Origin: Escherichia coli
GTDB lineage: Bacteria > Pseudomonadota > Gammaproteobacteria > Enterobacterales > Enterobacteriaceae
NCBI RefSeq assembly: GCF_029227855.1
Contig: NZ_CP074356.1
Strand: one strand, 5' to 3'
DNA length: 64,000 nucleotides
The position numbers and the translations under genes were made by a program. Positions 9,359-64,000 of this stretch are shown here, in pieces. The notes beneath the pieces are model-generated. The model was not told the DNA's origin. It worked only from the letters and a program-made list of their open reading frames with translations, and did not search any database. Numbering within the stretch: the first letter of the stretch is position 1; each line of letters begins with the position of its first letter.

Positions 9359-9536
9359 TCCTCTGATTTACAAAACACGCTAATTCGTCTTCCATAAACC
9401 ATGACGATTAAGATTTATACATAATGCGCTACATTGAGGAATTCCCTGAATGTGACGCAAATCACTTCAAAGAGTGAGCAACAGTCAGTATCATCATGTG
9501 AGTTAAACCCTCGCCGCCTGACGGTGAGGGTTTTCT

Positions 9537-10248
9537 TGTGCACAGAAAACCCCCAGCTAGGCTGGGGGTTCCGGAAAGCTTTCAGCTTTGAGCCTGTTAT
9601 TAAAACCCCTTTTGATTTGTTAAAACACCTTGCGGTCTGGCAACTGCAAGTGTCAAACAAGAAATCAAAAGGGGGTCCCAATGGGGAACGAAAAGAGCTT
9701 AGCGCACACCCGATGGAACTGTAAATATCACATAGTTTTTGCGCCAAAATACCGAAGACAGGTGTTCTACAGAGAGAAGCGTAGAGCAATAGGCAGTATT
9801 TTGAGAAAGCTGTGTGAGTGGAAAAGCGTACGGATTCTGGAAGCTGAATGCTGTGCAGATCATATCCATATGCTTGTGGAGATCCCGCCTAAAATGAGCG
9901 TATCCGGGTTTATGGGATATCTGAAAGGGAAAAGCAGTCTGATGCTTTACGAGCAGTTTGGTGATTTGAAATTCAAATACAGGAACAGGGAGTTCTGGTG
10001 CAGAGGGTACTACGTCGATACAGTGGGTAAGAACACGGCGAAGATACAGGATTACACAAAGCACCAGCTTGAAGAGGATAAAATGGGAGAGCAGTTATCG
10101 ATTCCCTATCCGGGCAGCCCGTTTACGGGCCGTAAGTAACGAAGTTGGATGCAAATGTCAGATCGTGTGCGCCTGTTAGGGCGCGGCTGGTAAGAGAGCC
10201 TTATAGGCGCATTTGAAAAACCTCCGGCTATGCCGGAGGATATTTATT
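9537..10248 (+). mobile_element. IS200 copy 1 (IS200/IS605 family), ~712 bp, boundaries approximate (+/- 5 bp)
   Basis: Boundaries set by where the sequence stops matching the reverse complement of copy 2 (48334..49046). Contains a left-end hairpin CCCCCAGC-TAG-GCTGGGGG, a 152-aa tnpA, and a right-end hairpin CCTCCGGC-TAT-GCCGGAGG. No terminal inverted repeats, as expected for this family. Confidence 0.85.
9681..10139 (+). CDS. tnpA: IS200 transposase TnpA (HUH Y1 transposase), 152 aa
   Basis: ORF 9630..10139; start taken at ATG 9681 (MGNEKSLAHTRWNCKYHIVFAPKYRRQVFY...HIHMLVEIPPK), the IS200 TnpA signature. Confidence 0.9.
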   Translation: MGNEKSLAHTRWNCKYHIVFAPKYRRQVFYREKRRAIGSILRKLCEWKSVRILEAECCADHIHMLVEIPPKMSVSGFMGYLKGKSSLMLYEQFGDLKFKYRNREFWCRGYYVDTVGKNTAKIQDYTKHQLEEDKMGEQLSIPYPGSPFTGRK

Positions 10249-10299
10249 TTTGGGTATGTTTATCTGCGACACTCGCAGTACCGACGACATGGAGTAAAA

Positions 10300-43145: not shown

Positions 43146-43266
43146 TTGACAACATCTGGTACGATTCGCCCGCAGCCATTACTGACCGCGGGCGAAAGTG
43201 TAAAGCAGGTGCCTTACCATCCTGACCTGACAACCGGATATGCGGGGATTGCTCCCCGCACAACGG

Positions 43267-43419
43267 CTACTTCTTCGGTTCGTAAGCGAGAACAGCCTTA
43301 AACTCAATATTACGTTCCTTCACCGTAAACTCACACAGCGAGTCGCGGACCAGAAGCGTAAATCCCAGCACCGTTAAACACAGCACTATGACTGCCACAA
43401 GGGCATATTTCGTCAGCAT
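43267..43419 (-). CDS. hokE: Hok-family membrane toxin, copy A, 50 aa (Arg at position 25)
   Basis: ORF 43267..43455; Hok start at ATG 43419 with GGAGG Shine-Dalgarno: [50 protein letters not shown]. Confidence 0.8.
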
Positions 43420-43519
43420 GTTTATATTGCCTCCATGCGAAGAAGGGACTACCATCCGAGTTGTTCAGGTTTGGGTAGGTAGCCCCAGGGTTGATAGAAA
43501 TATCGTCCTGGGGCTTCAT
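43331..43519 (-). CDS. mok-like overlapping reading frame of hok copy A, 62 aa
   Basis: ORF track 43331..43519 ([20 protein letters not shown]...), starts upstream of hok and overlaps it out of frame, the arrangement known for mok in hok/sok loci. Confidence 0.4.
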
Positions 43520-43670
43520 CTTTCCAGACCTCAGAGTTAACCTGAAACCGGAAAGCTTCAGGCACCCGCCGTTATCTTACCCTTCCTCAGCAAAATAGCT
43601 GTTTATTTATACAGTGAATCCTGTTTCGGACTTCTGTTGGCAAAACTGATCATTGCCCTTAAAACGACAT

Positions 43671-44139
43671 CGCCCGCAGCCATTGCTGACCGCGGGCGAA
43701 AGTGTAAAGCAGGTGCCTTACCACCCTGACCTGACAACCGGATATGCGGGGATTACTCCCCGCACAACGGCTACTTCTTCGGTTCGTAAGCGAGAACAGC
43801 CTTAAACTCAATATTACGTTCCTTCACCGTAAACTCACACAGCGAGTCTCCGACCAGAAGCGTAAATCCCAGTACCGTCAAACACAGCACTATGACTGCC
43901 ACAAGGGCATATTTCGTCAGCATGTTTATATTGCCTCCATGCGAAGAAGGGACTACCATCCAAATTGTCTGGTTTGGAGTGGCAGCCCCAGGGTTGATAG
44001 AAATATCTCCTGGGGCTTCATCTTTCCAGACCTCAGAGTAAACCTGAAACCGGAAAGCTTCAGGCACCCGCCGTTATCTTACCCTTCCTCAGCAAAATGG
44101 CTGTTTATTTATACAGTGAGTCCTGTTTCGGACTTCTCA
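43671..44139 (-). other. hok/sok-type type I toxin-antitoxin locus, copy B (hokE-like), boundaries approximate
   Basis: Tandem direct repeat of copy A with a 504-bp period; same stem-loops; differs by several substitutions and small indels in the mok/leader region. Confidence 0.8.
43771..43923 (-). CDS. hokE: Hok-family membrane toxin, copy B, 50 aa (Gly at position 25)
   Basis: ORF 43771..44067; Hok start at ATG 43923 with GGAGG Shine-Dalgarno: [50 protein letters not shown]. In this copy the upstream frame is fused in-frame to hok. Confidence 0.8.
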
Positions 44140-47035: not shown

Positions 47036-48331
<1,296 letters not shown>

Positions 48332-48333
48332 TT

Positions 48334-49046
48334 AATAAATATCCTCCGGCATAGCCGGAGGTTTTTCAAATGCGCCTATAAGGCTCTCTTACCAGCCGCG
48401 CCCTAACAGGCGCACACGATCTGACATTTGCATCCAACTTCGTTACTTACGGCCCGTAAACGGGCTGCCCGGATAGGGAATCGATAACTGCTCTCCCATT
48501 TTATCCTCTTCAAGCTGGTGCTTTATGTAATCCTGTATCTTCGCCGTGTTCTTACCCACTGTATCGACGTAGTACCCTCTGCACCAGAACTCCCTGTTCC
48601 TGTATTTGAATTTCAAATCACCAAACTGCTCGTAAAGCATCAGACTGCTTTTCCCTTTCAGATATCCCATAAACCCGGATACGCTCATTTTGGGCGGGAT
48701 CTCCACAAGCATATGGATATGATCTGCACAGCATTCAGCTTCCAGAATCCGTACGCTTTTCCACTCACACAGCTTTCTCAAAATACTGCCTATTGCTCTA
48801 CGCTTCTCTCTGTAGAACACCTGTCTTCGGTATTTTGGCGCAAAAACTATGTGATATTTACAGTTCCATCGGGTGTGCGCTAAGCTCTTTTCGTTCCCCA
48901 TTGGGACCCCCTTTTGATTTCTTGTTTGACACTTGCAGTTGCCAGACCGCAAAGTGTTTTAACAAATCAAAAGGGGTTTTAATAACTGGCTCAAAGCTGA
49001 AAGCTTTCCGGAACCCCCAGCCTAGCTGGGGGTTTTCTGTGCACAA
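48334..49046 (-). mobile_element. IS200 copy 2 (IS200/IS605 family), ~713 bp, inverted relative to copy 1; boundaries approximate
   Basis: Reverse complement matches copy 1 over its full length; I saw one mismatch in the noncoding left part plus one TnpA codon difference. Begins 3 bp after the ybdG stop; its other end abuts the pheP terminator hairpin. Confidence 0.85.
48443..48901 (-). CDS. tnpA: IS200 transposase TnpA, 152 aa
   Basis: ORF 48443..48952; start taken at the ATG at 48901 (MGNEKSLAHTRWNCKYHIVFAPKYRR...); differs from copy 1 at one residue (Ile versus Thr in ...KIQDY[I/T]KHQ...). Confidence 0.9.
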   Translation of the reverse strand: MGNEKSLAHTRWNCKYHIVFAPKYRRQVFYREKRRAIGSILRKLCEWKSVRILEAECCADHIHMLVEIPPKMSVSGFMGYLKGKSSLMLYEQFGDLKFKYRNREFWCRGYYVDTVGKNTAKIQDYIKHQLEEDKMGEQLSIPYPGSPFTGRK

Positions 49047-49078
49047 AAAAACCGCTCTCATCGAATGGATGAGAGCGG
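49044..49078 (-). terminator. Rho-independent terminator of pheP (minus strand)
   Basis: CCGCTCTCATC-GAATG-GATGAGAGCGG hairpin followed on the minus strand by a 7-nt U-run; a degenerate REP-like palindrome lies between it and the pheP stop. Confidence 0.65.
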
Positions 49079-50587: not shown

Positions 50588-53500
50588 TTATTTCCGTACC
50601 CGATGTCGGTGCAGCCACATCAGCTTATACGCCGCCGGGATAATAAACAGCGACAGCAAAGGCGCGGTGATCATGCCGCCAATCATCGGTGCGGCAATCC
50701 GGCTCATCACCTCTGAACCAGCCCCCGTTCCCCACAGAATCGGCAGCAGACCGGCGATAATCACCGCCACCGTCATCGCTTTCGGGCGCACGCGCAGTAC
50801 CGCGCCGTGATACAACGCCTCATCCAGCTTCTGCTCACTGAATGTTTGCGGATTATTCAACGACGGCTCGGCCTCTATGGCGTGACGTAAATACATCAGC
50901 ATCACCACGCCAAATTCGGCGGCGACCCCGGCAAGGGCAATAAAGCCAGTACCCGTCGCCACGGAAAGATGAAAGCCCATCCACCACAGCAACCAGATGC
51001 CGCCCACCAGCGCAAACGGTACGCTGCTGATAATCAGCAACGCTTCGCCCACCCGACGGAATGCCAGATACAACAGCACGAAGATGATCATCAGTGTCAT
51101 CGGCACCATGAGTTTCAGCTTATGGTTGGCGCGCTCCAGTAGCTCGAACTGCCCGGAGAATGCCACGCTGGTGCCCGGTTTTAACTGCACTTTTTCATCT
51201 ATCGCTTTTTGCAAATCGTGAACCACCGACACCATGTCACGATCGCGGGCATCGATATAAATCCAGCTCGTCGGGCGCGCATTCTCGGTTTTCAGCATCG
51301 ACGGTCCGGTAGAGACTTTAATGTCGGCCACGTCTGCCAGGGTGATTTGCTGCTTCATCGGCGTCAGGATCGGCAACTGGCGCAGTGCCTGCGGACTATC
51401 GCGCCAGCTTTGCGGATAACGCAGATTAATTGGATAACGGGCAATCCCTTCCACCGTTTCGCCAACCATCGCCCCGCCCACCGCAGAAGTCACAAACAAC
51501 TGCACATCCGCCACCGTCATACCGTAACGCGCGGCTTTTTCACGGTTAATCTCAACGTTGATATAGCGCCCACCTTCCAGACGCTCGGCAAGCGCAGAAG
51601 CCACGCCTGGTACCGTTCGTGCCACCTCTTCAATTTGCTCCGCCATCGCGTCGATATCCGCCAGCACAGTGCCGGAAACTTTAATGCCGATGGGGCTTTT
51701 AATGCCAGTCGAGAGCATATCGATACGGTTACGAATTGGCGGCACCCACAGATTCGCCAGCCCCGGCAGCCGCACGGTGTTATCCAGTTCCTCAATGATT
51801 TTGTCCATCGTCATGCCAGGCCGCCACTGATCCTGCGGCTTAAGCTGGATGGTCGTTTCAACCATCTCGAGCGGAGCAGAATCGGTGGCGGTTTCCGCTT
51901 TCCCGGTTTTGCCAAATACCCGCGCCACTTCAGGTACGCTCATAATTAGCTTGTCGGTTTTTTGCAGCATACTCGCCGCCTCTGCTGCGGAAATCCCCGG
52001 CAGCGTCGATGGCATATACAACAAGTCGCCTTCATTGATCTGCGGTAAAAATTCCCCGCCAACTTTATTGAGCGGCCAGAGAACCGTCAGCACCGAAAGC
52101 GCTGCCACCAGCAGCGTGGTTTTTGGCCAGTGCAGTACTTTCAGCAACAGCGGATGATAAGCACGAATCAAAAAGCGATTGAGCGGGTTACTGCTTTCTG
52201 GCGGAATTTTGCCACGGATCCAGTAACCCATCAGGATAGGGATCACTATGATCGCCAGCAGCGCCGCACCCGCCATCGCATAAGTTTTGGTGAACGCCAG
52301 CGGGCCAAACAGACGCCCTTCCTGCCCTTCCAGGGTGAAGATCGGGATAAACGACAACGTGATAATCAGCAGACTGATAAACAGCGCCGGCCCCACTTCA
52401 ACAGACGCATCGGTGATCACCTGCCAGCGCGTTTTATTATCCAGCGTGGCGTCAGGATGCTGGTGCTGCCACTCTTCCAGTCGTTTATGCGCATTCTCGA
52501 TCATGACGATAGCGGCATCGACCATCGCCCCGACGGCAATCGCAATGCCGCCCAGCGACATAATATTGGCATTCAGCCCCTGGAAGTGCATGACAATAAA
52601 AGCAATACACAACCCCAGCGGCAACGAAATAATCGCCACCAGCGCCGAGCGCACATGCCAGAGAAACAGCGCACAGACTACCGCCACCACAATAAACTCT
52701 TCCAGCAACTTGCCGCTGAGGTTGTCGATGGCGCGGTCAATGAGCTGGCTGCGATCGTATGTTGTAACTATCTCCACGCCTTCCGGCAGACTGCTTTTCA
52801 GCGTTTCCAGTTTGTCTTTCACGGCGGCGATCACTTCTCGGGCGTTTTTGCCGGAGCGCAGGATCACCACCCCGCCCGCCACTTCGCCTTCGCCGTTCAG
52901 TTCGGCAATGCCCCGGCGCATCTCCGGGCCAATCTGGACCTTCGCAACATCGCGCAGATAAACGGGCACGCCATTTTCACTGGCTTTTAAAACGATGTGA
53001 TTAAAGTCGTCGAGCGTTTGCAGATAGCCGCTGGCGCGCACCATATATTCCGCTTCCGCCAGTTCGATCGACGAACCGCCCGCTTCCTGGTTTGAAGCAT
53101 CCAGCGCGCTTTTTACTTCGGCGAGACTGATGCCATATTGCGCCAGGCGCTGGGGATCGATAACCACCTGATACTCTTTCACCACACCGCCCACCGACGC
53201 CACTTCCGCAACGTCAGGGATGGTTTTTAGCTCATATTTGAGAAACCAGTCCTGCAATGAGCGTAAATCGGCCAGATCGTGCTTACCGCTGCGATCCACC
53301 AGTGCATATTCATAGATCCAGCCAACACCCGTGGCATCTGGCCCCAGCTCAGCGCTGACTCCCGCAGGCAGCTTACCCTGTACCTGGTTGAGGTACTCCA
53401 GCACCCGCGAGCGCGCCCAGTATGGATCGGTGCCATCTTCGAAAATGACATACACATAAGAGTCGCCAAACTGCGAGAAACCGCGCACAGTCTTCGCGCC

Positions 53501-53731
53501 AGGCACCGACAACATAGTGGTGGTTAGCGGATAAGTCACCTGATTTTCAACGATTTGCGGTGCCTGACCGGGATAGCTGGTTTTAATAATCACCTGCACA
53601 TCAGAGAGATCCGGCAGTGCATCCACTGGCGTGTTAATGATGGTCCAGGTGCCCCAGATACTCAGAAACAACGCGCCCATCAGCACCAGAAAACGGTTCG
53701 CCACCGAGCGACGAATAATCCATTCAATCAT
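50588..53731 (-). CDS. cusA: Cu(I)/Ag(I) efflux RND transporter CusA, 1047 aa
   Basis: ORF track 50588..53731, [47 protein letters not shown]... Confidence 0.96.
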
Positions 53732-53742
53732 TGGTTATTCCC

Positions 53743-54966
53743 TCAATGCGCATGGGTAGCACTTTCAGAGCGCATCCGCTCCAGTGCGCCAGAAATATTG
53801 GCTTCGGAATCAATCAGGAACAGGCCGCTGGAAACCACCTTTTCACCTTCCGCCAGACCAGAGCGTAATGCGGTGACGCCTTGCGATGCCTGGAAAACGG
53901 CAACGCGTTTCGGTACAAAGCGCCCGTCGGCATCAACGGTAATCACCCGCTGTTCGCTGCCGGTATCAATCAGCGCTTGTGACGGAATGAGCAGCATCGG
54001 TTCGCTGGCGGTGTTGAGTTGCAACCAGGCGTTCATTCCCGGCTTTAGCGCCTCGTCGGTGTTGTCGACTTCCAGGCGCAGCTGCAGCGTGCGGGTTGCG
54101 GCATCCACGCCGGGTAGCAGCGTCCATTTGCGGATGGTGAGTGTTTTATCAGGTCGTGCCGGAACGGTGAGCGTAAACTGCGAGGCATCTTTCACCAGCC
54201 AGGCGATGGACTCCGGGATCGCGGCAGTGATCCACACCGGATCCATACCCTGAATTTTCGCGACCACGTTATCTTTGGCGATATTCATTCCCGCGCGCAG
54301 ATCAAACGCGGTGATCACGCCATCAATGGGCGCTTTGAGCGTAAAGCGAGTCTGGATTTTTTGCGTGGCGATCAGGCGGCGAATATCCGCCTCCGGCATT
54401 CCCGCCAGTCTCAGCCGCTCAAGAATGCCTTCAGTCTGGGTCGCCGTACCGCCAGTTTCGCGCAGCAGTAAATACTCACTCTGCGCTTCCACCCAGTCGG
54501 GAATGGTCAGGTCGAGAAGCGGCGCGCCCTTTTGTACTTTATCGCCCACGGTAAGCGGATACACCTTGTCGATAAACCCGGCGGCGCGGGCCTGCACAAT
54601 GGCATACTGATACTCGTTGTAACTGACATTCGCCGGGAAACTTTGGGCAAAAGTCAGCGGCCCGCGCGTGACGGTCGCCGTTTTCACCCCCAGATTCTGC
54701 GTCTGAGTCGGGTCAATGCGCACACCAGACGCAGAACTCTCTTCATCGGCATATTTCGGCACCAGATCCATATCCATAAACGGCGATTTACCTGGTTTAT
54801 CGAACCGCGTATTGGGATACATCGGGTCGTACCAGAATAAGATTTTACGTTCTGCGGTCGACGTTTTTTCTGCGGGCGGTTCCGCCTTTGCAAACCAGGT
54901 AAAACCTGCCGCAGAAATAATACCGCCCGCGATCATGCTGCCGATAATAAGCGCGATTTTTTTCAT
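53743..54966 (-). CDS. cusB: Cu(I)/Ag(I) efflux membrane-fusion protein CusB, 407 aa
   Basis: ORF track 53743..54966, MKKIALIIGSMIAGGIISAAGFTWFAKAEPPAEK... Confidence 0.95.
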   Translation of the reverse strand: MKKIALIIGSMIAGGIISAAGFTWFAKAEPPAEKTSTAERKILFWYDPMYPNTRFDKPGKSPFMDMDLVPKYADEESSASGVRIDPTQTQNLGVKTATVTRGPLTFAQSFPANVSYNEYQYAIVQARAAGFIDKVYPLTVGDKVQKGAPLLDLTIPDWVEAQSEYLLLRETGGTATQTEGILERLRLAGMPEADIRRLIATQKIQTRFTLKAPIDGVITAFDLRAGMNIAKDNVVAKIQGMDPVWITAAIPESIAWLVKDASQFTLTVPARPDKTLTIRKWTLLPGVDAATRTLQLRLEVDNTDEALKPGMNAWLQLNTASEPMLLIPSQALIDTGSEQRVITVDADGRFVPKRVAVFQASQGVTALRSGLAEGEKVVSSGLFLIDSEANISGALERMRSESATHAH

Positions 54967-54981
54967 CTCATTAAACCTGGG

Positions 54982-55314
54982 TTACTGGCTGACTTTAATA
55001 TCCTGTAATAAAGAAAGGTTGCCCTGCTGGACAAAATTAAACGCCACTTTGTCGCCGGTTTTTATTTCGCCCATCTTCGTCTGCGGGGTGATGGTAAAGC
55101 GCATGGTCATCTCCGGCCAGTTCACGGCAGCAATCGGATCGTGATGGATAGTGATTTTTTTGCTTTCCAGATCAATACCTTTTACCACCCCTGTGGCACT
55201 AATGACCTGCGGTTGTGCTTCGCTCATGGTTTCATGATGATGTTCGTTAGCCTGGGCATTAAAGCCAATAACGGTAAACAGACTGAACATTGCGACTTGC
55301 AGTGCTTTTTTCAT
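54982..55314 (-). CDS. cusF: Periplasmic Cu(I)/Ag(I) chaperone CusF, 110 aa
   Basis: ORF track 54982..55314, MKKALQVAMFSLFTVIGFNAQANEHHHETMSEAQPQVISATGVVKGIDLESKKITIHHD... Confidence 0.95.
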   Translation of the reverse strand: MKKALQVAMFSLFTVIGFNAQANEHHHETMSEAQPQVISATGVVKGIDLESKKITIHHDPIAAVNWPEMTMRFTITPQTKMGEIKTGDKVAFNFVQQGNLSLLQDIKVSQ

Positions 55315-55337
55315 TTATTCTCTCCTGGAGTTAAAAA

Positions 55338-56720
55338 TTATTGCTGCCAACCGCCACCAAGTGCGGTATATAAAGAAATTTCGTTAACCTGACGGGCATA
55401 ATTCAGGTCAAGTAAAGTTTGTCGGGTTGCAAATAAAGAACGTTCGGCATCCAGCACTTCCAGATAACTGATTGCGCCGTGCTGATATAATGCCCGCGCC
55501 CGTTGCAAAGTAATTTGCAGCGATGCCAGATAACGCTGCTGGGCGCTAATTTGATCGTTCAGGCTTTGACGTAATGCCAGCGCATCTGCCACTTCTTTAA
55601 AGGCATTCTGGATTTTCTGTTCATAATTCACCACCGACTGCTGCTGGCGAATTTCGGCGATATCCAGATTGGCCTGGTTGCGTCCGGCATTAAAAATGGG
55701 GATCTCAATTTTGGGAATAAAATTCCACATCCCGCTGCTGGCGTTAAATAAGGACGACAGATCGCTGCTGGCGGTCGATATTCCGCTGGTCAGACTGATA
55801 GACGGGAAAAATGCCGCGCGTGCAGCGCCAATATTGGCATTAGCCGCCATCAACGCGTGTTCAGCTTCCATAATATCCGGGCGCTGCAATAAGATTTGCG
55901 ACGACAAGCCCGCCGGTAATTTAACGCTTTGCAGGCTGTCGCTGTTTACTGTTTGCGCTTGCGGCAGCTTGCCGTAGCTTCCCAGCAACAGTTGCAATGC
56001 ATTATTCGCCTGCGCCAGTTCCCCCTGACGTTTAGCGATGTCGCTGCGGGTACTTTCTATCACCCCGCGAGCCTGTTCCAGCGCCAGAACATTGCTGCTA
56101 CCGGTCAACAGTTGTTTTTCGACAAACGCATATGACTGCTGATAATTACGCAGCGTTTCTTCGGCTATTTGCAATTGCGCATACGCCAGTTGCTGATTGA
56201 AATAGCTTTGCGCGACATTAGAAACCAGCAGAATATGCACCGCGCGCTGGGCTTCCTCAGTGGCTAAATAATTTTGGCGCTCGGCTTCGCTCATGTTCTT
56301 TAAGCGACCGAAAAAATCGAGATCAAAGCTGGCGTTAAGGCCGGTCGAAAACTCCCGTGTCGTGGCGGTATTCCCTTTAAGATTACCGCTCCAGCTGCCG
56401 CTGCCCTCGCCATTGAGCTGTGGGTAGCGGTCGGCATCGGTCAGACGATATTGCGCCCGTGCCTCCTGCACTTTCAGCGTCGCCATGCGCAAATCCCGGT
56501 TATTCACCAGCGCCTCGCTAATCAGCGTCTTCACCTGATTATCAATAAAAAAGGTGCGCCAGCCCGCGTTCTGGTAGTTATCTGCTGCGTTAACCAGGCC
56601 GTTCTGGCTGAGTGAGAACTGCTTCGGTACGGGCATTGCCGGACGCTGATAATCCGGTGCCAATGAACAACCGGTTAGCGCAAGGGCCACACAAAATGGC
56701 AGAAGTTTACAAGGAGACAT
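55338..56720 (-). CDS. cusC: Cu(I)/Ag(I) efflux outer-membrane factor CusC (lipoprotein), ~460 aa
   Basis: ORF 55338..56726 (upstream GTG); start taken at ATG 56720 (MSPCKLLPFCVALALTGCSLAPDYQRP..., lipobox LTGC). Confidence 0.93.
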   Translation of the reverse strand: MSPCKLLPFCVALALTGCSLAPDYQRPAMPVPKQFSLSQNGLVNAADNYQNAGWRTFFIDNQVKTLISEALVNNRDLRMATLKVQEARAQYRLTDADRYPQLNGEGSGSWSGNLKGNTATTREFSTGLNASFDLDFFGRLKNMSEAERQNYLATEEAQRAVHILLVSNVAQSYFNQQLAYAQLQIAEETLRNYQQSYAFVEKQLLTGSSNVLALEQARGVIESTRSDIAKRQGELAQANNALQLLLGSYGKLPQAQTVNSDSLQSVKLPAGLSSQILLQRPDIMEAEHALMAANANIGAARAAFFPSISLTSGISTASSDLSSLFNASSGMWNFIPKIEIPIFNAGRNQANLDIAEIRQQQSVVNYEQKIQNAFKEVADALALRQSLNDQISAQQRYLASLQITLQRARALYQHGAISYLEVLDAERSLFATRQTLLDLNYARQVNEISLYTALGGGWQQ

Positions 56721-56789
56721 AGGCACATAATTTCTGGTGATTTTATGCCGCCAACTTTACCCGCCAGGCTCTGATTTTCCGGTGACAGG

Positions 56790-56811
56790 AAAATGACAAA
56801 ATTGTCATTTT
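56790..56811. promoter_or_regulatory. CusR box in the divergent cusC / cusR promoter region
   Basis: Palindrome AAAATGACAAAATTGTCATTTT between divergent cusCFBA and cusRS, matching the CusR operator as I recall it. Confidence 0.75.
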
Positions 56812-56876
56812 ACCAATAAGCGATTGCCATCTGATCCCGCTACTCTAGAATTGCCCGGGCAACATGTGGAGGAAAT

Positions 56877-57560
56877 ATGAAACTGTTGATTGTCGAAGAT
56901 GAAAAGAAAACCGGAGAATACTTGACCAAAGGGTTAACCGAAGCCGGTTTTGTGGTCGATTTGGCCGACAACGGGCTGAATGGCTACCATCTGGCGATGA
57001 CCGGAGATTATGATCTGATAATCCTCGATATTATGCTGCCGGACGTGAACGGCTGGGATATCGTGCGCATGTTGCGTTCCGCCAATAAAGGGATGCCGAT
57101 TCTGTTGCTTACCGCGCTTGGTACCATTGAACATCGCGTCAAGGGGCTGGAGTTGGGGGCGGATGACTATCTGGTGAAGCCGTTCGCTTTTGCTGAACTG
57201 CTGGCGCGGGTGCGCACTCTACTGCGGCGCGGGGCGGCGGTAATTATCGAAAGTCAGTTTCAGGTTGCCGATCTGATGGTCGATCTCGTCAGCCGCAAAG
57301 TCACCCGCAGCGGCACGCGCATCACTCTGACCAGTAAAGAATTTACTCTGCTGGAGTTTTTCCTCCGCCATCAAGGCGAAGTGCTGCCCCGCTCGCTTAT
57401 CGCCTCGCAGGTGTGGGACATGAATTTCGACAGCGATACCAACGCCATTGATGTGGCAGTGAAGCGGCTGCGCGGCAAAATCGACAACGACTTTGAGCCG
57501 AAGCTGATTCAAACCGTGCGCGGCGTGGGTTACATGCTTGAGGTGCCGGATGGTCAGTAA
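56877..57560 (+). CDS. cusR: Copper-responsive response regulator CusR (OmpR family), 227 aa
   Basis: ORF track 56877..57560, [41 protein letters not shown]... Confidence 0.95.
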
Positions 57561-58998
57561 GCCATTTCAGCGCCCGTTTTCGCTGGCAACCCGCCTGACC
57601 TTTTTTATCAGCCTGGCCACCATCGCGGCGTTTTTCGCCTTTGCCTGGATCATGATTCACTCGGTAAAAGTGCATTTTGCTGAGCAGGATATTAATGATT
57701 TAAAAGAGATTAGCGCCACACTCAAGCGCGTTCTTAATCATCCCGAAGAGACACAAGCCCGACGCTTAATGACGCTGGAAGATATCGTCAGTGGTTATTC
57801 CAATGTGTTGATTTCCCTGGCAGATAGCCAGGGTAAAACGGTGTATCACTCCCCCGGTGCGCCGGATATCCGCGAGTTTACGCGTGACGCCATACCCGAT
57901 AAAGACACGCGGGGCGGCGAGGTGTATCTCCTTTCCGGCCCGACGATTATGATGCCGGGCCACGGTCACGGGCATATGGAACACAGCAACTGGCGGATGA
58001 TTAACTTGCCGGTTGGCCCGTTGGTGGACGGCAAACCGATTTATACGCTCTACATCGCGCTTTCGATCGATTTTCATCTTCATTACATAAATGATTTGAT
58101 GAATAAACTTATTATGACCGCATCGATCATCAGCATCCTGATCGTCTTTATCGTGCTGTTGGCGGTACATAAAGGTCACGCACCGATCCGCAGCGTCAGC
58201 CGTCAAATCCAGAACATTACCTCGAAAGATCTCGACGTTCGCCTTGACCCGCAGACCGTGCCGATTGAGCTGGAACAGCTGGTACTGTCGTTCAACCATA
58301 TGATCGAGCGTATTGAGGATGTCTTTACTCGCCAGTCCAATTTCTCAGCGGATATCGCTCACGAAATTCGTACACCAATTACGAATCTCATCACGCAAAC
58401 GGAAATCGCCCTCAGCCAGTCGCGCAGCCAGAAGGAGCTGGAAGATGTGCTCTACTCTAATCTCGAAGAGCTGACGCGAATGGCGAAAATGGTCAGCGAT
58501 ATGCTGTTTCTCGCCCAGGCCGATAACAACCAGTTAATCCCCGAAAAGAAAATGCTCAACCTGGCGGATGAAGTCGGCAAAGTGTTCGATTTTTTCGAGG
58601 CATTAGCGGAAGATCGCGGCGTGGAGTTGCGGTTTGTTGGTGACGAGTGTCAGGTTGCGGGCGATCCGCTGATGCTGCGTCGGGCGTTAAGCAACCTGCT
58701 TTCGAACGCCCTGCGTTATACGCCGCCCGGAGAGGCAATTGTTGTGCGCTGCCAGACGGTCGATCACCAGGTGCAAGTTACCGTCGAAAACCCCGGTACG
58801 CCCATTGCGCCCGAGCACTTACCGCGATTGTTTGACCGTTTCTATCGCGTTGACCCTTCCCGCCAGCGAAAAGGTGAAGGTAGCGGTATTGGGCTGGCGA
58901 TAGTGAAATCGATTGTTGTCGCGCATAAAGGCACGGTTGCGGTAACGTCAGATGCGCGGGGGACAAGGTTTGTGATTATGCTGCCGGAGAGAGAGTGA
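57550..58998 (+). CDS. cusS: Copper/silver sensor histidine kinase CusS, 482 aa
   Basis: ORF 57538..58998; start taken at ATG 57550 ([29 protein letters not shown]...), overlapping the cusR stop; H-box [10 protein letters not shown]. Confidence 0.93.
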
Positions 58999-59734
58999 TT
59001 ATTAAGTTCAAATTCAGGGCGTGGTGCATCACCTCCTGGTATTGTTGATCAACAAATTAGAGAAAAACTTATTAAACATATGAAATATCGAAGGCTTTTA
59101 TTTTTCAAAGTTTCACGAGATGTTTGTATATGAAACTTAGTTAAATCTGTGTTTCTTCCAATTGTAGATCACAATGCCCTTTCTAAATTTTCATCGTTAT
59201 AAACAAGCCATCTATCATATAAAGCAATGAATAATTTAATCGCGATTAATCATCATTAATTGTTATATTATTCACTCAATCTATTTATCAAGTGAATTTG
59301 ATAAATTCCTAATTTAAAATATCCACTATTGAGCCAGTATTTAACAACGTTAAGATGTGCAATGTGCAGATCATGTTATCAGGGTGGAGCGGTAGCATAT
59401 ATTTCTTATGCAATCATTCATTTTAATAATGTTAATTGGATTATTTATTGCTGTGAATAAAAATATATTATGAATATTGGTTTAACTTTGCGTTTTTGTT
59501 ACTCGTTGTGATATGCGTACCTGTCCTGAATAACGCCAAGAAACAAGAGGTTGAGCTTGTGATTATTTTTTTGACTGAACAGACACCCGTTTCTGTAAAG
59601 TAATATTTAAACAAAATTCTCACATAACCATAGCATTTTCTGTTCCTTCCCTAATAACGTCTGAAGTCGTCCCGCTTATCACATTATCCGCAGTTGTACG
59701 GTACGGATCATTATTCATTTTACTGGAGGTTGCT

Positions 59735-61636
59735 ATGTCAACCGGATTACGTTTCACACTGGAAGTGGACGGCCTGCCGCCGGATGCTTTTGCGGTGGTT
59801 TCCTTTCATCTGAACCAGTCACTCTCTTCGCTCTTTTCCCTCGATCTCTCCCTGGTCAGCCAGCAGTTTCTCTCCCTTGAATTTGCGCAGGTGCTGGACA
59901 AAATGGCCTACCTGACGATATGGCAGGGCGATGAAGTACAGCGCCGGGTGAAAGGCGTGGTGACCTGGTTTGAACTCGGGGAGAACGACAAAAACCAGAT
60001 GCTGTACAGCATGAAGGTGCACCCGCCGCTGTGGCGTGCCGGTCTGCGCCAGAACTTCCGTATCTTCCAGAACGAGGACATCAAAAGCATCCTCGGCACG
60101 ATGTTGCAGGAAAACGGGGTGACCGAATGGAGTCCGCTGTTCAGCGAGCCGCATCCTTCCCGTGAGTTTTGTGTCCAGTACGGTGAGACTGATTACGATT
60201 TCCTGTGCCGGATGGCGGCGGAGGAAGGCATCTTCTTTTATGAGGAGCATGCTTACAAAAGTACCGACCAGAGCCTGGTGCTGTGCGACACAGTCCGCCA
60301 TCTGCCCGAATCTTTTGAAATCCCATGGAACCCGAACACCCGTACCGAGGTGAGCACCCTCTGCATCAGCCAGTTCCGCTACAGCGCACAAATCCGCCCT
60401 TCTTCCGTGGTGACCAAAGACTACACCTTTAAACGCCCCGGCTGGGCCGGACGTTTTGAACAGGAAGGCCAGCACCAGGACTACCAGCGCACGCAGTATG
60501 AAGTGTATGACTACCCCGGACGTTTCAAGGGTGCCCACGGGCAGAACTTTGCCCGCTGGCAGATGGACGGCTGGCGAAACAATGCAGAAACCGCGCGGGG
60601 AATGAGTCGCTCGCCGGAGATATGGCCGGGACGACGAATTGTGCTGACGGGGCATCCGCAGGCGAACCTGAACCGGGAATGGCAGGTGGTGGCAAGTGAA
60701 CTGCACGGCGAACAGCCACAGGCGGTGCCAGGACGGCAGGGAGCGGGGACGGCGCTGGAGAACCATTTTGCGGTGATCCCGGCAGACAGAACATGGCGAC
60801 CACAGCCGTTGCTGAAACCGCTGGTCGACGGCCCGCAGAGCGCTGTCGTGACAGGACCGGCAGGCGAGGAAATCTTCTGCGACGAACATGGTCGCGTGCG
60901 GGTGAAGTTCAACTGGGACCGCTATAACCCGTCAAACCAGGACAGTTCGTGCTGGATCCGTGTGGCACAGGCGTGGGCAGGCACCGGTTTTGGCCACCTG
61001 GCGATACCGCGTGTGGGTCAGGAGGTGATTGTAGACTTCCTCAACGGCGATCCGGACCAGCCGATCATTATGGGGCGCACCTACCACCAGGAAAACCGCA
61101 CCCCCGGCAGCCTGCCGGGAACAAAGACGCAGATGACCATCCGCTCCAAAACGTACATGGGCAGCGGATTTAATGAGCTGAAGTTTGATGATGCGACAGG
61201 GAGAGAACAGGTCTACATCCACGCGCAGAAGAACATGGATACCGAAGTGCTCAACGACCGTACCACCACCGTAAAACACGATCACCACGAAACCGTAAAA
61301 AATGACCAGACGGTCACGATCCAGGAAGGTAACCGCCTTCTTACGGTGGAAAAAGGCCACAAGATCACCGGAGTACTGAAAGGGTCTTTATCTGAGGATG
61401 TCTTTCAGGACAGAGGCACGATTGCCGGTTCGGTGCATGTTGACGCTGTAAACAATGGTGGCGAAGGCGACGGTATACAGGCTTATACGGCGATTAAGGA
61501 AATTTTGCTGGCCGTGGAGGAAAGCAAAATTGCGCTGACGCCGGATGGCATTCAGCTACAGGTCGGGGAATCGACGGTAATCAGGCTGTCGAAGGATGGC
61601 ATCACCATCGTGGGCGGTTCTGTTTTCATCAACTGA
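59735..61636 (+). CDS. vgrG: Type VI secretion spike protein VgrG (gp27/gp5-like), 633 aa, no C-terminal effector extension
   Basis: ORF track 59735..61636 with GGAGG Shine-Dalgarno; MSTGLRFTLEVDGLPPDAFAVVSFHLNQSLSSLFSLDLSLVS... N-terminus is the VgrG signature; followed by a DUF1795 gene and a PAAR-Rhs gene. Confidence 0.85.
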   Translation: MSTGLRFTLEVDGLPPDAFAVVSFHLNQSLSSLFSLDLSLVSQQFLSLEFAQVLDKMAYLTIWQGDEVQRRVKGVVTWFELGENDKNQMLYSMKVHPPLWRAGLRQNFRIFQNEDIKSILGTMLQENGVTEWSPLFSEPHPSREFCVQYGETDYDFLCRMAAEEGIFFYEEHAYKSTDQSLVLCDTVRHLPESFEIPWNPNTRTEVSTLCISQFRYSAQIRPSSVVTKDYTFKRPGWAGRFEQEGQHQDYQRTQYEVYDYPGRFKGAHGQNFARWQMDGWRNNAETARGMSRSPEIWPGRRIVLTGHPQANLNREWQVVASELHGEQPQAVPGRQGAGTALENHFAVIPADRTWRPQPLLKPLVDGPQSAVVTGPAGEEIFCDEHGRVRVKFNWDRYNPSNQDSSCWIRVAQAWAGTGFGHLAIPRVGQEVIVDFLNGDPDQPIIMGRTYHQENRTPGSLPGTKTQMTIRSKTYMGSGFNELKFDDATGREQVYIHAQKNMDTEVLNDRTTTVKHDHHETVKNDQTVTIQEGNRLLTVEKGHKITGVLKGSLSEDVFQDRGTIAGSVHVDAVNNGGEGDGIQAYTAIKEILLAVEESKIALTPDGIQLQVGESTVIRLSKDGITIVGGSVFIN

Positions 61637-61663
61637 TTCACTCAGATTATCAGGGAGTATTTT

Positions 61664-62125
61664 ATGCAGTTCACTTTTAATGAAGGCCACATTCAACTGC
61701 CGTCTCAATGGCAGGATCAGTCAATGCAGGTCCTGGTGTCCACAGATAACAGTGGCATCAACCTGGTCATTACCCGCGAAGCCGTTCCACAGGGAACCCT
61801 GACACCAGAGCTGTACCAGGAAACGCTGGCGCTGTACCAGGGCAAACTTGATGGGTACACCGAACATGCCTGCCGGGAAATCACTCTGGCAGAGGCCCCG
61901 GCCTGGCTGCTGGATTATTCCTGGAACGGTCCGGAAGATGAGGGGAATCAGGGGCGGATTAGCCAGATAGCCGTATTCCAGCGGCGTGGAGATACGCTGC
62001 TGACCTTCACTTTCAGCACCTCCTTATCCCTGAAGAACAGTCAAAAGACGATGCTGCTGGAGGTGATAAAGAGCTTCACCCCGTTGCCACCGGAGAATGA
62101 CATCCAAAAGGACCAGCCGCGCTGA
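61664..62125 (+). CDS. DUF1795 / Eag-family (EagR-like) chaperone for a prePAAR Rhs effector, 153 aa
   Basis: ORF track 61664..62125, MQFTFNEGHIQLPSQWQDQSMQVLVSTDNSGINLVITREAV...; size, N-terminal pattern and position between vgrG and a prePAAR-Rhs gene fit Eag chaperones. Confidence 0.7.
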   Translation: MQFTFNEGHIQLPSQWQDQSMQVLVSTDNSGINLVITREAVPQGTLTPELYQETLALYQGKLDGYTEHACREITLAEAPAWLLDYSWNGPEDEGNQGRISQIAVFQRRGDTLLTFTFSTSLSLKNSQKTMLLEVIKSFTPLPPENDIQKDQPR

Positions 62126-62144
62126 CATAAACGAGGGATAACAC

Positions 62145-64000
62145 ATGAGTGAAGGACCAGGCGGGCCACAGGGAGCGACCGCAGGCGGTACGCTGGCAAT
62201 GCGAATGCTGTCACAGCAGGCGATGGTCGCCAGCCAGATGAAACGGGCAGCCAACGACAAAGCCATTGCACAGATGCTGGCATCAAAAAAGTCCGGCCCC
62301 CCCGCCGCCAGGCTGGGCGATGAAATTCAGCACAAGAGTTTTTTGGGGGCGCTGGCAGGGGCCGTGCTGGGGGCGATAGTGACCATCGCAGAAGGTTGCC
62401 TGATTATGGCCGCCTGTGCCACCGGCCCTTATGCGCTGGTTCTGGTGCCTGCGCTGATGTATGCCAGCTATAAGGCGAGTGATTATGTGGAGGAGAAACA
62501 GAACCAGCTTGAATCATGGATAAACAGCTTTTGTGACACGGACGGCGCCATCAATACCGGTTCTGAAAATGTAAACATTAACGGAAAGCCCGCTGCCAGG
62601 GCCGCCGTCACCCTTCCCCCTCCTCCCCCACCTGGAGCAATACCTGAAATCCCACAGGGGGAACCCTCATGGGGTGATATTGCCACTGACCTGCTTGAAT
62701 CGGCAGCGGAAAAAGCAGTACCACTGGCGAAGGCCTGGGGGAACGCTGTTATCACCCTGACGGACAGCAATGCCGGTTTTATGGATCGCGTCAGCGCCGG
62801 CGCATCGCTTCTGTTTCCCGCCGGTCCGGTATTAATGGAGTTTGCCACCATGGTGGGCGGGCGTGGCGAAATCAAAAAAGATGTGGATTTCCCGGAAGCC
62901 GGTGAGGACACGGCGCTCTGCGACAAGGAGAACAAACCACCGAGGATAGCCCAGGGCAGCAGCAACGTCTTTATCAACAATCAGCCCGCCGCGCGCAAGG
63001 GCGACAAACTGGAGTGCAGCGCGGCAATCGTGGAAGGTTCGCCGGACGTCTTTATTGGCGGTGAACAGGTGACCTATCTGGATATCCAGCCAGAGTTCCC
63101 GCCGTGGCAGAGAATGATCCTGGGGGGAATAACGATAGCCAGCTATCTTCTGCCGCCAGCGGGACTGCTGGGAAAACTGAAGAATCTGGCGAGACTCGGC
63201 AAACTGGGGAACCTGCTGGGGAAAAGCGGGAAGCTGCTGGGGGCAAAGCTCGGCGCGTTGCTGGGAAAAACAGATAAGTCGTTAAAAAGTATTGCCAATA
63301 AAGTCATCAGATGGGTAACAGATCCTGTCGATCCGGTAACCGGCGCGTACTGCGACGAACGTACCGACTTTACGCTGGGCCAGACCCTCCCCCTCTCCTT
63401 CACCCGTTTCCACAGTTCTGTACTGCCGCTGCATGGCCTGACCGGCGTGGGCTGGAGCGACTCCTGGAGCGAATACGCCTGGGTGCGTGAACAGGGAAAC
63501 CGGGTGGATATCATCAGCCAGGGAGCCACGCTGAACTTCGCCTTCGACGGTGACAGTGATACGGCGGTTAACCCGTATCACGCCCAGTACATTCTGCGCC
63601 GCCGCGATGATTATCTGGAGCTGTTCGACAGGGATGCACTGAGCAGCCGCTTCTTTTATGACGCCTTTCCGGGAATGCGTCTGCGCCACCCGGTGACTGA
63701 CGATACCAGCGATGACCGCCTGGCACACAGCCCCAATGACCGGATGTACATGCTGGGCGGGATGAGCGACACCGCCAGCAACCGCATCACGTTTGAGCGC
63801 GACAGCCAGTACCGGATCACAGGTGTCAGTCACACCGACGGGATCCGGCTTAAACTGACGTACCACGCCAGCGGCTACCTGAAAGCCATTCACCGCACGG
63901 ATAACGGCATACAGACGCTGGCGACCTACGAACAGGATGCGCGGGGGCGGCTGACAGAAGCGGATGCGCGGCTGGACTACCACCTGTTTTATGAGTACGA
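62145..64000 (+). CDS. Rhs-family T6SS effector, N-terminal part (prePAAR motif, two TM helices, PAAR domain, start of RHS repeat core); partial, continues beyond window end
   Basis: Own translation from ATG 62145 (GAGGG Shine-Dalgarno): MSEGPGGPQG...AARLGDEIQH (prePAAR AARxxDxxxH) ...FLGALAGAVLGAIVTIAEGCLIMAACATGPYALVLVPALMYASY... PAAR-like INGKPAARA / NVFINNQPAARKGDKLECS ... RWVTDPVDPVTGAY (RHS core start); no stop before position 64000. Confidence 0.85.
   Translation, partial: MSEGPGGPQGATAGGTLAMRMLSQQAMVASQMKRAANDKAIAQMLASKKSGPPAARLGDEIQHKSFLGALAGAVLGAIVTIAEGCLIMAACATGPYALVLVPALMYASYKASDYVEEKQNQLESWINSFCDTDGAINTGSENVNINGKPAARAAVTLPPPPPPGAIPEIPQGEPSWGDIATDLLESAAEKAVPLAKAWGNAVITLTDSNAGFMDRVSAGASLLFPAGPVLMEFATMVGGRGEIKKDVDFPEAGEDTALCDKENKPPRIAQGSSNVFINNQPAARKGDKLECSAAIVEGSPDVFIGGEQVTYLDIQPEFPPWQRMILGGITIASYLLPPAGLLGKLKNLARLGKLGNLLGKSGKLLGAKLGALLGKTDKSLKSIANKVIRWVTDPVDPVTGAYCDERTDFTLGQTLPLSFTRFHSSVLPLHGLTGVGWSDSWSEYAWVREQGNRVDIISQGATLNFAFDGDSDTAVNPYHAQYILRRRDDYLELFDRDALSSRFFYDAFPGMRLRHPVTDDTSDDRLAHSPNDRMYMLGGMSDTASNRITFERDSQYRITGVSHTDGIRLKLTYHASGYLKAIHRTDNGIQTLATYEQDARGRLTEADARLDYHLFYEY

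Follow-up and report, generated by a model that had tools for sequence, protein, structure and literature searches.

The DNA analysed here is a 64-kb stretch of Escherichia coli chromosome (hereafter ‘the window’, meaning the whole of that stretch), in which the divergent cusCFBA and cusRS operons are separated by a spacer of 156 bp (56721–56876), the same length as in K-12. To the left, and on the minus strand, the cusCFBA operon extends over 50588–56720: cusC lies closest to the spacer (55338–56720, start at 56720; 460 aa versus 457 in K-12, with 454 of the 457 aligned residues identical), and is followed by cusF (54982–55314; 109/110 residues identical to K-12), cusB (53743–54966; 403/407) and cusA (50588–53731; 1042/1047). 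To the right, and on the plus strand, we find cusR (56877–57560), encoding a 227-aa response regulator that is identical to K-12 CusR at every position and that carries the same annotation in a genome 100% identical over window 56500–57100, and then cusS (57550–58998), encoding a 482-aa sensor histidine kinase that matches the 480-aa K-12 protein over its full length with 467 identities. All six open reading frames are full length, with CusA, CusB, CusF, CusC and CusS being free of internal stops. Judged by sequence, the cus regulon of this strain thus looks intact, in agreement with the first-pass annotation, which had described a site consistent with an intact copper-responsive regulon. More broadly, the 601 bp around the spacer site discussed below (window 56500–57100) are matched in full (100% identity) by several complete E. 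coli chromosomes annotated with cusC/cusR; a stretch that is present in 5,336 of 5,426 E. coli genomes. E. coli O19:H7 strain 730V1 offers a contrast, its cus control region being disrupted by an IS903B element in the cusC–cusR spacer, between cusC and the site, with an ISKpn26 element additionally present within cusC itself (L005, 1976–2944 and 418–1398).

Some differences from K-12 are apparent on either side of these genes. The spacer between cusC and cusF measures just 23 bp in the window (55315–55337), whereas that of K-12 is 157 bp long and contains an ERIC-like repeat of ~127 bp (L002, 8975–9131) that the window lacks; through this repeat, cusC of K-12 also loses its last three codons, leaving 457 rather than 460 aa. 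At the other end, similarity to K-12 ceases within the last codons of cusS, at ~58977, such that the C-terminal residues of CusS differ (…FVIMLPERE here versus …FVITLPA in K-12) at the junction with a vgrG island. Where K-12 continues with nfrB, the window strain instead carries, downstream of cusS, a vgrG–toxin module comprised of vgrG (59735–61636), a DcrB-related gene (61664–62125) and a large zincin-like toxin gene (within 58977–64000). The description of this segment as a ‘T6SS island’ was too generous: it is an orphan vgrG/DcrB-like/zincin-toxin module without a full T6SS cluster, and one that is common in the species. The junction between cusS and the module, which K-12 lacks, occurs in 2,695 of the 5,426 complete genomes of the species; being present in about half of them, it is a common arrangement and no peculiarity of the window strain. 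The IS200 element that had been described as neighbouring is likewise less close than that word implies, with the copy in question lying at about 48340–49044 (within 48331–49055), between the convergent genes ybdG and pheP, outside the cus genes and 7.7 kb from the spacer site; a second copy is located at about 9531–10253, between rna and rnk. In the closest complete genome, that of CFSAN018748, an IS200C element is instead found between uspG and ahpF, so IS200 sites vary among near-identical strains. The hokE toxin region also appears as two tandem copies (43166–43635 and 43670–44137), ~96% identical to each other's counterparts; two hokE genes are annotated likewise in a related genome.

Within the cusC–cusR spacer, positions 56790–56811 read AAAATGACAAAATTGTCATTTT, exactly the coordinates at which the first-pass annotation had placed it. 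It had also described the element as a perfect 22-bp palindrome; a comparison of the sequence with its own reverse complement, however, gives a match at 20 of 22 positions. The element is better described as a 10+2+10 inverted repeat, with two perfectly complementary arms of 10 bp each (56790–56799, AAAATGACAA; 56802–56811, TTGTCATTTT) flanking a central AA (56800–56801) that is not self-complementary. Outward pairing of the arms ends at the edges of the element, with G at 56789 and A at 56812. Its centre, at 56800.5, falls 2 bp from the midpoint of the spacer at 56798.5, bearing out the remark that it is centred between cusCFBA and cusRS. It is also the sole perfect 10+2+10 inverted repeat in the 64-kb window, for which our own estimate of chance expectation (64000 × 4^-10) is ~0.06; and the pattern AAAATGACAANNTTGTCATTTT, allowing up to 3 mismatches, has a single match in the window against none in 100 dinucleotide-preserving shuffles.

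The element corresponds to a known operator. Aligned to K-12 MG1655 (NC_000913.3), all 22 positions are identical, and the K-12 CusR box shares with it the length of the spacer, its placement with respect to the two start codons and the CusR protein itself; over the 156 bp of the spacer there are 5 differences, two of which directly flank the box (G here versus A in K-12 at 56789, and A versus G at 56812). The element also agrees at 22 of 22 positions, with nn being AA, with the CusR box that has been published as AAAATGACAAnnTTGTCATTTT for the interval separating cusRS from cusC(F)BA (PMC11195947, which cites Munson 2000 and Yamamoto & Ishihama 2005). Binding itself has been documented in the literature: ChIP-chip at 2 mM CuSO4 gave a single CusR peak in the cusC–cusR spacer (bioRxiv 10.1101/2020.08.17.251918), genomic SELEX (gSELEX) placed a CusR peak in the same interval (PMC8249747), and Reg-Seq footprints show the cusC promoter to be activated in a copper-dependent manner (PMC12132413). 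The comparison with K-12 proposed in the first-pass annotation therefore comes out in favour of its assignment, with every position retained and the published peaks mapping to the same spacer. The box thus lies between the divergent cusRS and cusCFBA operons, is identical to the orthologous bound site of K-12, and is accompanied by a cognate regulator whose DNA-binding domain is unchanged. Whilst binding and activation are taken from published work, and the position of the footprint from secondary citations, the identity, position, conservation and gene intactness reported here were computed; taken together, we estimate a probability of roughly 95% that 56790–56811 is the CusR operator of the CusS/CusR system. 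As such, the box is already known and is unchanged from K-12; the region that controls copper/silver efflux is unaltered in this strain, and the use of this observation is one of routine annotation only, for example in predicting copper or silver tolerance.

The same binding studies bring a second regulator into consideration, as CusR and HprR (YedW) have a common recognition sequence (PMC8249747, PMC9302797) and the single strongest HprR peak found by gSELEX also falls in the cusR/cusC spacer (PMC8249747). It might be argued from this that the site serves mainly HprR in vivo, with CusR in a secondary role; an arrangement we consider very unlikely, given that the cited literature has CusRS as a requirement for the induction of cusCFBA by copper, that CusR occupies the spacer by ChIP-chip, and that, in other genera, the box is found together with homologues of cusR/silR. 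Binding by HprR adds to the assignment as a CusR operator rather than replacing it.

Across the species the box hardly varies. Taking 30 bp that cover it (56782–56811), and using the identity bands of this longer stretch as a bound for conservation of the 22-mer, we find 3,463 records with the identical sequence and 1,868 with a single mismatch, while only 8 show greater divergence; in other words, the sequence is identical or one base off in ~5,330 of the 5,426 complete genomes of the species. The common single mismatch is the G/A polymorphism at 56789, just outside the box, as the example of K-12 shows.

Beyond E. coli, a scan of reference genomes for AATGACAANNTTGTCATTTT returned at least 120 loci, for which the Cus context was assessed by tblastn with the six Cus proteins. 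Among the matches listed, 24 of 120 loci have a cus-like match and ~12 a true cusR/cusC context; boxes in cusC/cusR spacers occur, again among the matches listed, in Escherichia whittamii, Citrobacter koseri, Kosakonia, Pseudocitrobacter, Budvicia and four species of Providencia. The box is also found upstream of silE and pcoE, and in the plasmid-borne silC–silR spacer it is kept (as ATAATGACAATGTTGTCATTTT) where most of the surrounding spacer has diverged. Most of the other matches listed, many of them in AT-rich taxa, have no cus gene nearby and appear to be due to chance; in isolation from its gene context, the 18-base pattern is consequently not diagnostic. The abundance of such matches in unrelated and often AT-rich genomes does lend something to the notion that the element in the window is itself no more than a chance inverted repeat, devoid of function, in an AT-rich intergenic stretch. 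We find this scarcely credible: the window shuffles yield nothing comparable even with 3 mismatches, the 64 kb holds no second repeat of this form, the box is essentially invariant within the species and is kept in the same gene context by genera whose spacer flanks have diverged, and published binding data put CusR at the site.

Several individual loci from the scan merit a brief description. In a Puniceicoccaceae (Verrucomicrobiota) metagenome-assembled genome (MAG), GAAATGACAAAATTGTCATTTT is situated 43 bp upstream of a CusR homologue with 45% identity (L084, 2285–2304), and the box thus appears either to be present outside the Proteobacteria or to have been transferred there. In two related Clostridiales/Oscillospiraceae MAGs (L071, 716–735; L077, 1780–1799), (G/A)GAATGACAAAATTGTCATTTT precedes by 85 bp the gene for a regulator of the OmpR family with only 31–33% identity to CusR; here the match could be due to chance, or could reflect a distant regulator that shares the box. 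In Citrobacter koseri NCTC10786 (L116, 3094–3773) the cusR match beside an intact box is divided into three tblastn pieces that abut or overlap by a few bases, which suggests frameshifts, arising from either a pseudogene or errors of assembly.

Turning to the promoters on either side of the box, we anchored 12 of them on the box and read each, ungapped, towards the structural operon. The set consists of cusC from eight genomes (E. coli, C. koseri, Kosakonia, Budvicia and four of Providencia), the DUF305–cusFCBA operon of Shimwellia, and the plasmid genes silC, silE and pcoE. A candidate -10 hexamer for cusCFBA, TAAAGT, lies on the minus strand at 56754–56759, exactly 30 nt after the 22-bp box, its TAnnnT pattern being invariant in 12 of 12 promoters; these are, however, related by descent, some of them closely (the four Providencia), so that invariant columns overstate the independent support. 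From this hexamer we infer that transcription of cusC would start near 56747, which would put the centre of the box near -53.5. The corresponding -35 region is poor (CCGGAA), and a sigma-70 scan of the region found no minus-strand promoter for cusC; as is to be expected for an activator-dependent promoter with a -35 of this kind. A short A.CA motif at 56772–56775 is also (near-)invariant across the anchored promoters.

On the opposite strand, a promoter scan gives a putative cusRS promoter at 56824–56851 (plus strand; TTGCCA, 16 nt, TAGAAT; 10/12 match). TAGAAT recurs in every Enterobacterales cusC/silC–cusR/silR spacer examined, although at differing distances from the box: 34 nt in Escherichia, Citrobacter, Kosakonia and sil versus 21–23 nt in Providencia and Budvicia. 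With both predicted promoters firing away from the box, leftward from ~56747 and rightward from ~56858, the box should not be transcribed.

This arrangement bears upon whether the repeat might act at the level of RNA, as a hairpin or a bidirectional intrinsic terminator (A-run, stem, T-run), in place of an operator. The element does fold stably (-12.7 kcal/mol; z = -3.8 against shuffles), and its stem is flanked by A4 and T4 runs. Any palindrome will nevertheless fold well as RNA, and the stem here is A/U-rich; both flanking genes diverge from the site, leaving no converging transcript for it to terminate, and outward-firing promoters would keep it out of either message. A terminator scan of the region found none and, on the strength of this result and of the divergent genes, the terminator/hairpin reading was rejected as most improbable, its stable fold notwithstanding.

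Returning to the site as a CusR operator, the anchored alignment points to an additional element between the box and cusC. Here, a further TGACA (56783–56787, plus strand) is in phase with that of the left arm (56794–56798), at a distance of 11 bp, with its GTCA invariant in 12 of 12 promoters whilst neighbouring bases vary. On the start site proposed above it would be found at about -38, and we infer that it may provide an extra contact for CusR. There are about even odds, in our opinion, that the cusC-side operator is a composite of three half-sites (the palindrome, the in-phase TGACA at ~-38 and a -10 at fixed distance) common to the cusC, silC, silE and pcoE promoters of the Enterobacterales. 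If so, the asymmetry of the composite would explain how a single symmetric box comes to drive the efflux operon in one way and the regulator operon in another. The layout on the side of the efflux operon is the only point that we regard as even mildly new, and the primary literature may already describe it; our own literature search for a third half-site or direct repeat at CusR boxes found the AgrR precedent alone.

That precedent is the AgrR box of Cupriavidus metallidurans, ATKACANNNNTGTMAT, in which a 6-4-6 inverted repeat is combined with an in-phase, promoter-proximal direct repeat; the contribution of the promoter-proximal half-site to activation has been demonstrated by mutation (PMC7380067). 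The core of the CusR box, ATGACA-AAAT-TGTCAT (56793–56808), fits the same 6-4-6 consensus, and it too has a conserved promoter-side half-site, here about one helical turn away. Saying this, AgrR is a different regulator from a different organism, and the contribution of the third half-site in the CusR system is suggested by conservation, as opposed to mutation.

Related boxes are also to be found on plasmids, in sil and pco (silC–silR, silE and pcoE), which share with the chromosomal box the ATGACAA-NN-(T/A)TGTCAT core, the promoter-proximal third half-site (in phase, at 11 bp) and the distance to the TAnnnT -10; they differ in their outer A/T arms, which show partial degeneracy (ATAATGACAA for sil; GGTGACAA for pcoE). 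Their regulators are SilR, ~87% identical to CusR, or chromosomal CusR acting in trans, with pcoE reportedly being controlled by CusR (PMC11195947). The HprR/PcoR-type box (CATTACAAAATTGTAATG, hiuH–hprR; PMC9302797) is a dyad of the same 6-4-6 geometry to which HprR and CusR both bind, but its half-site is TTACA rather than the TGACA of the CusR box.

Combined with what is described for K-12, these features suggest a scheme for how the spacer would operate. According to the K-12 literature, periplasmic Cu(I)/Ag(I) would activate the kinase CusS, which would in turn phosphorylate the OmpR-family regulator CusR. A dimer of phosphorylated CusR would then bind the inverted repeat ATGACAA-NN-TTGTCAT midway along the cusC–cusR spacer, where no transcription is expected, and switch on both divergent promoters; leftward that of cusCFBA, for the efflux pump, and rightward that of cusRS, for autoregulation. 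On the cusC side, the third in-phase TGACA, adjoining the weak -35, would presumably reinforce this. Recognition of the same box by the paralogue HprR would, in addition, link the site to peroxide/HOCl signalling.

Two further loci illustrate variations on these boxes. On a plasmid, CATTACACGATTGTAATG lies upstream of pcoA (L004, 8399–8632) as a dyad of the TTACA type, similar to the hiuH–hprR box and with no counterpart in the window; silE and pcoE, on that same plasmid, have a CusR box of the TGACA type. In Shimwellia pseudoproteus (L022, 5440–5640), a box with all three half-sites follows cusS and precedes a DUF305-like gene, which is followed by cusF-, cusC-, cusB- and cusA-like genes; it is therefore outside any cusC–cusR divergent spacer, and yet its third half-site still faces the efflux operon.
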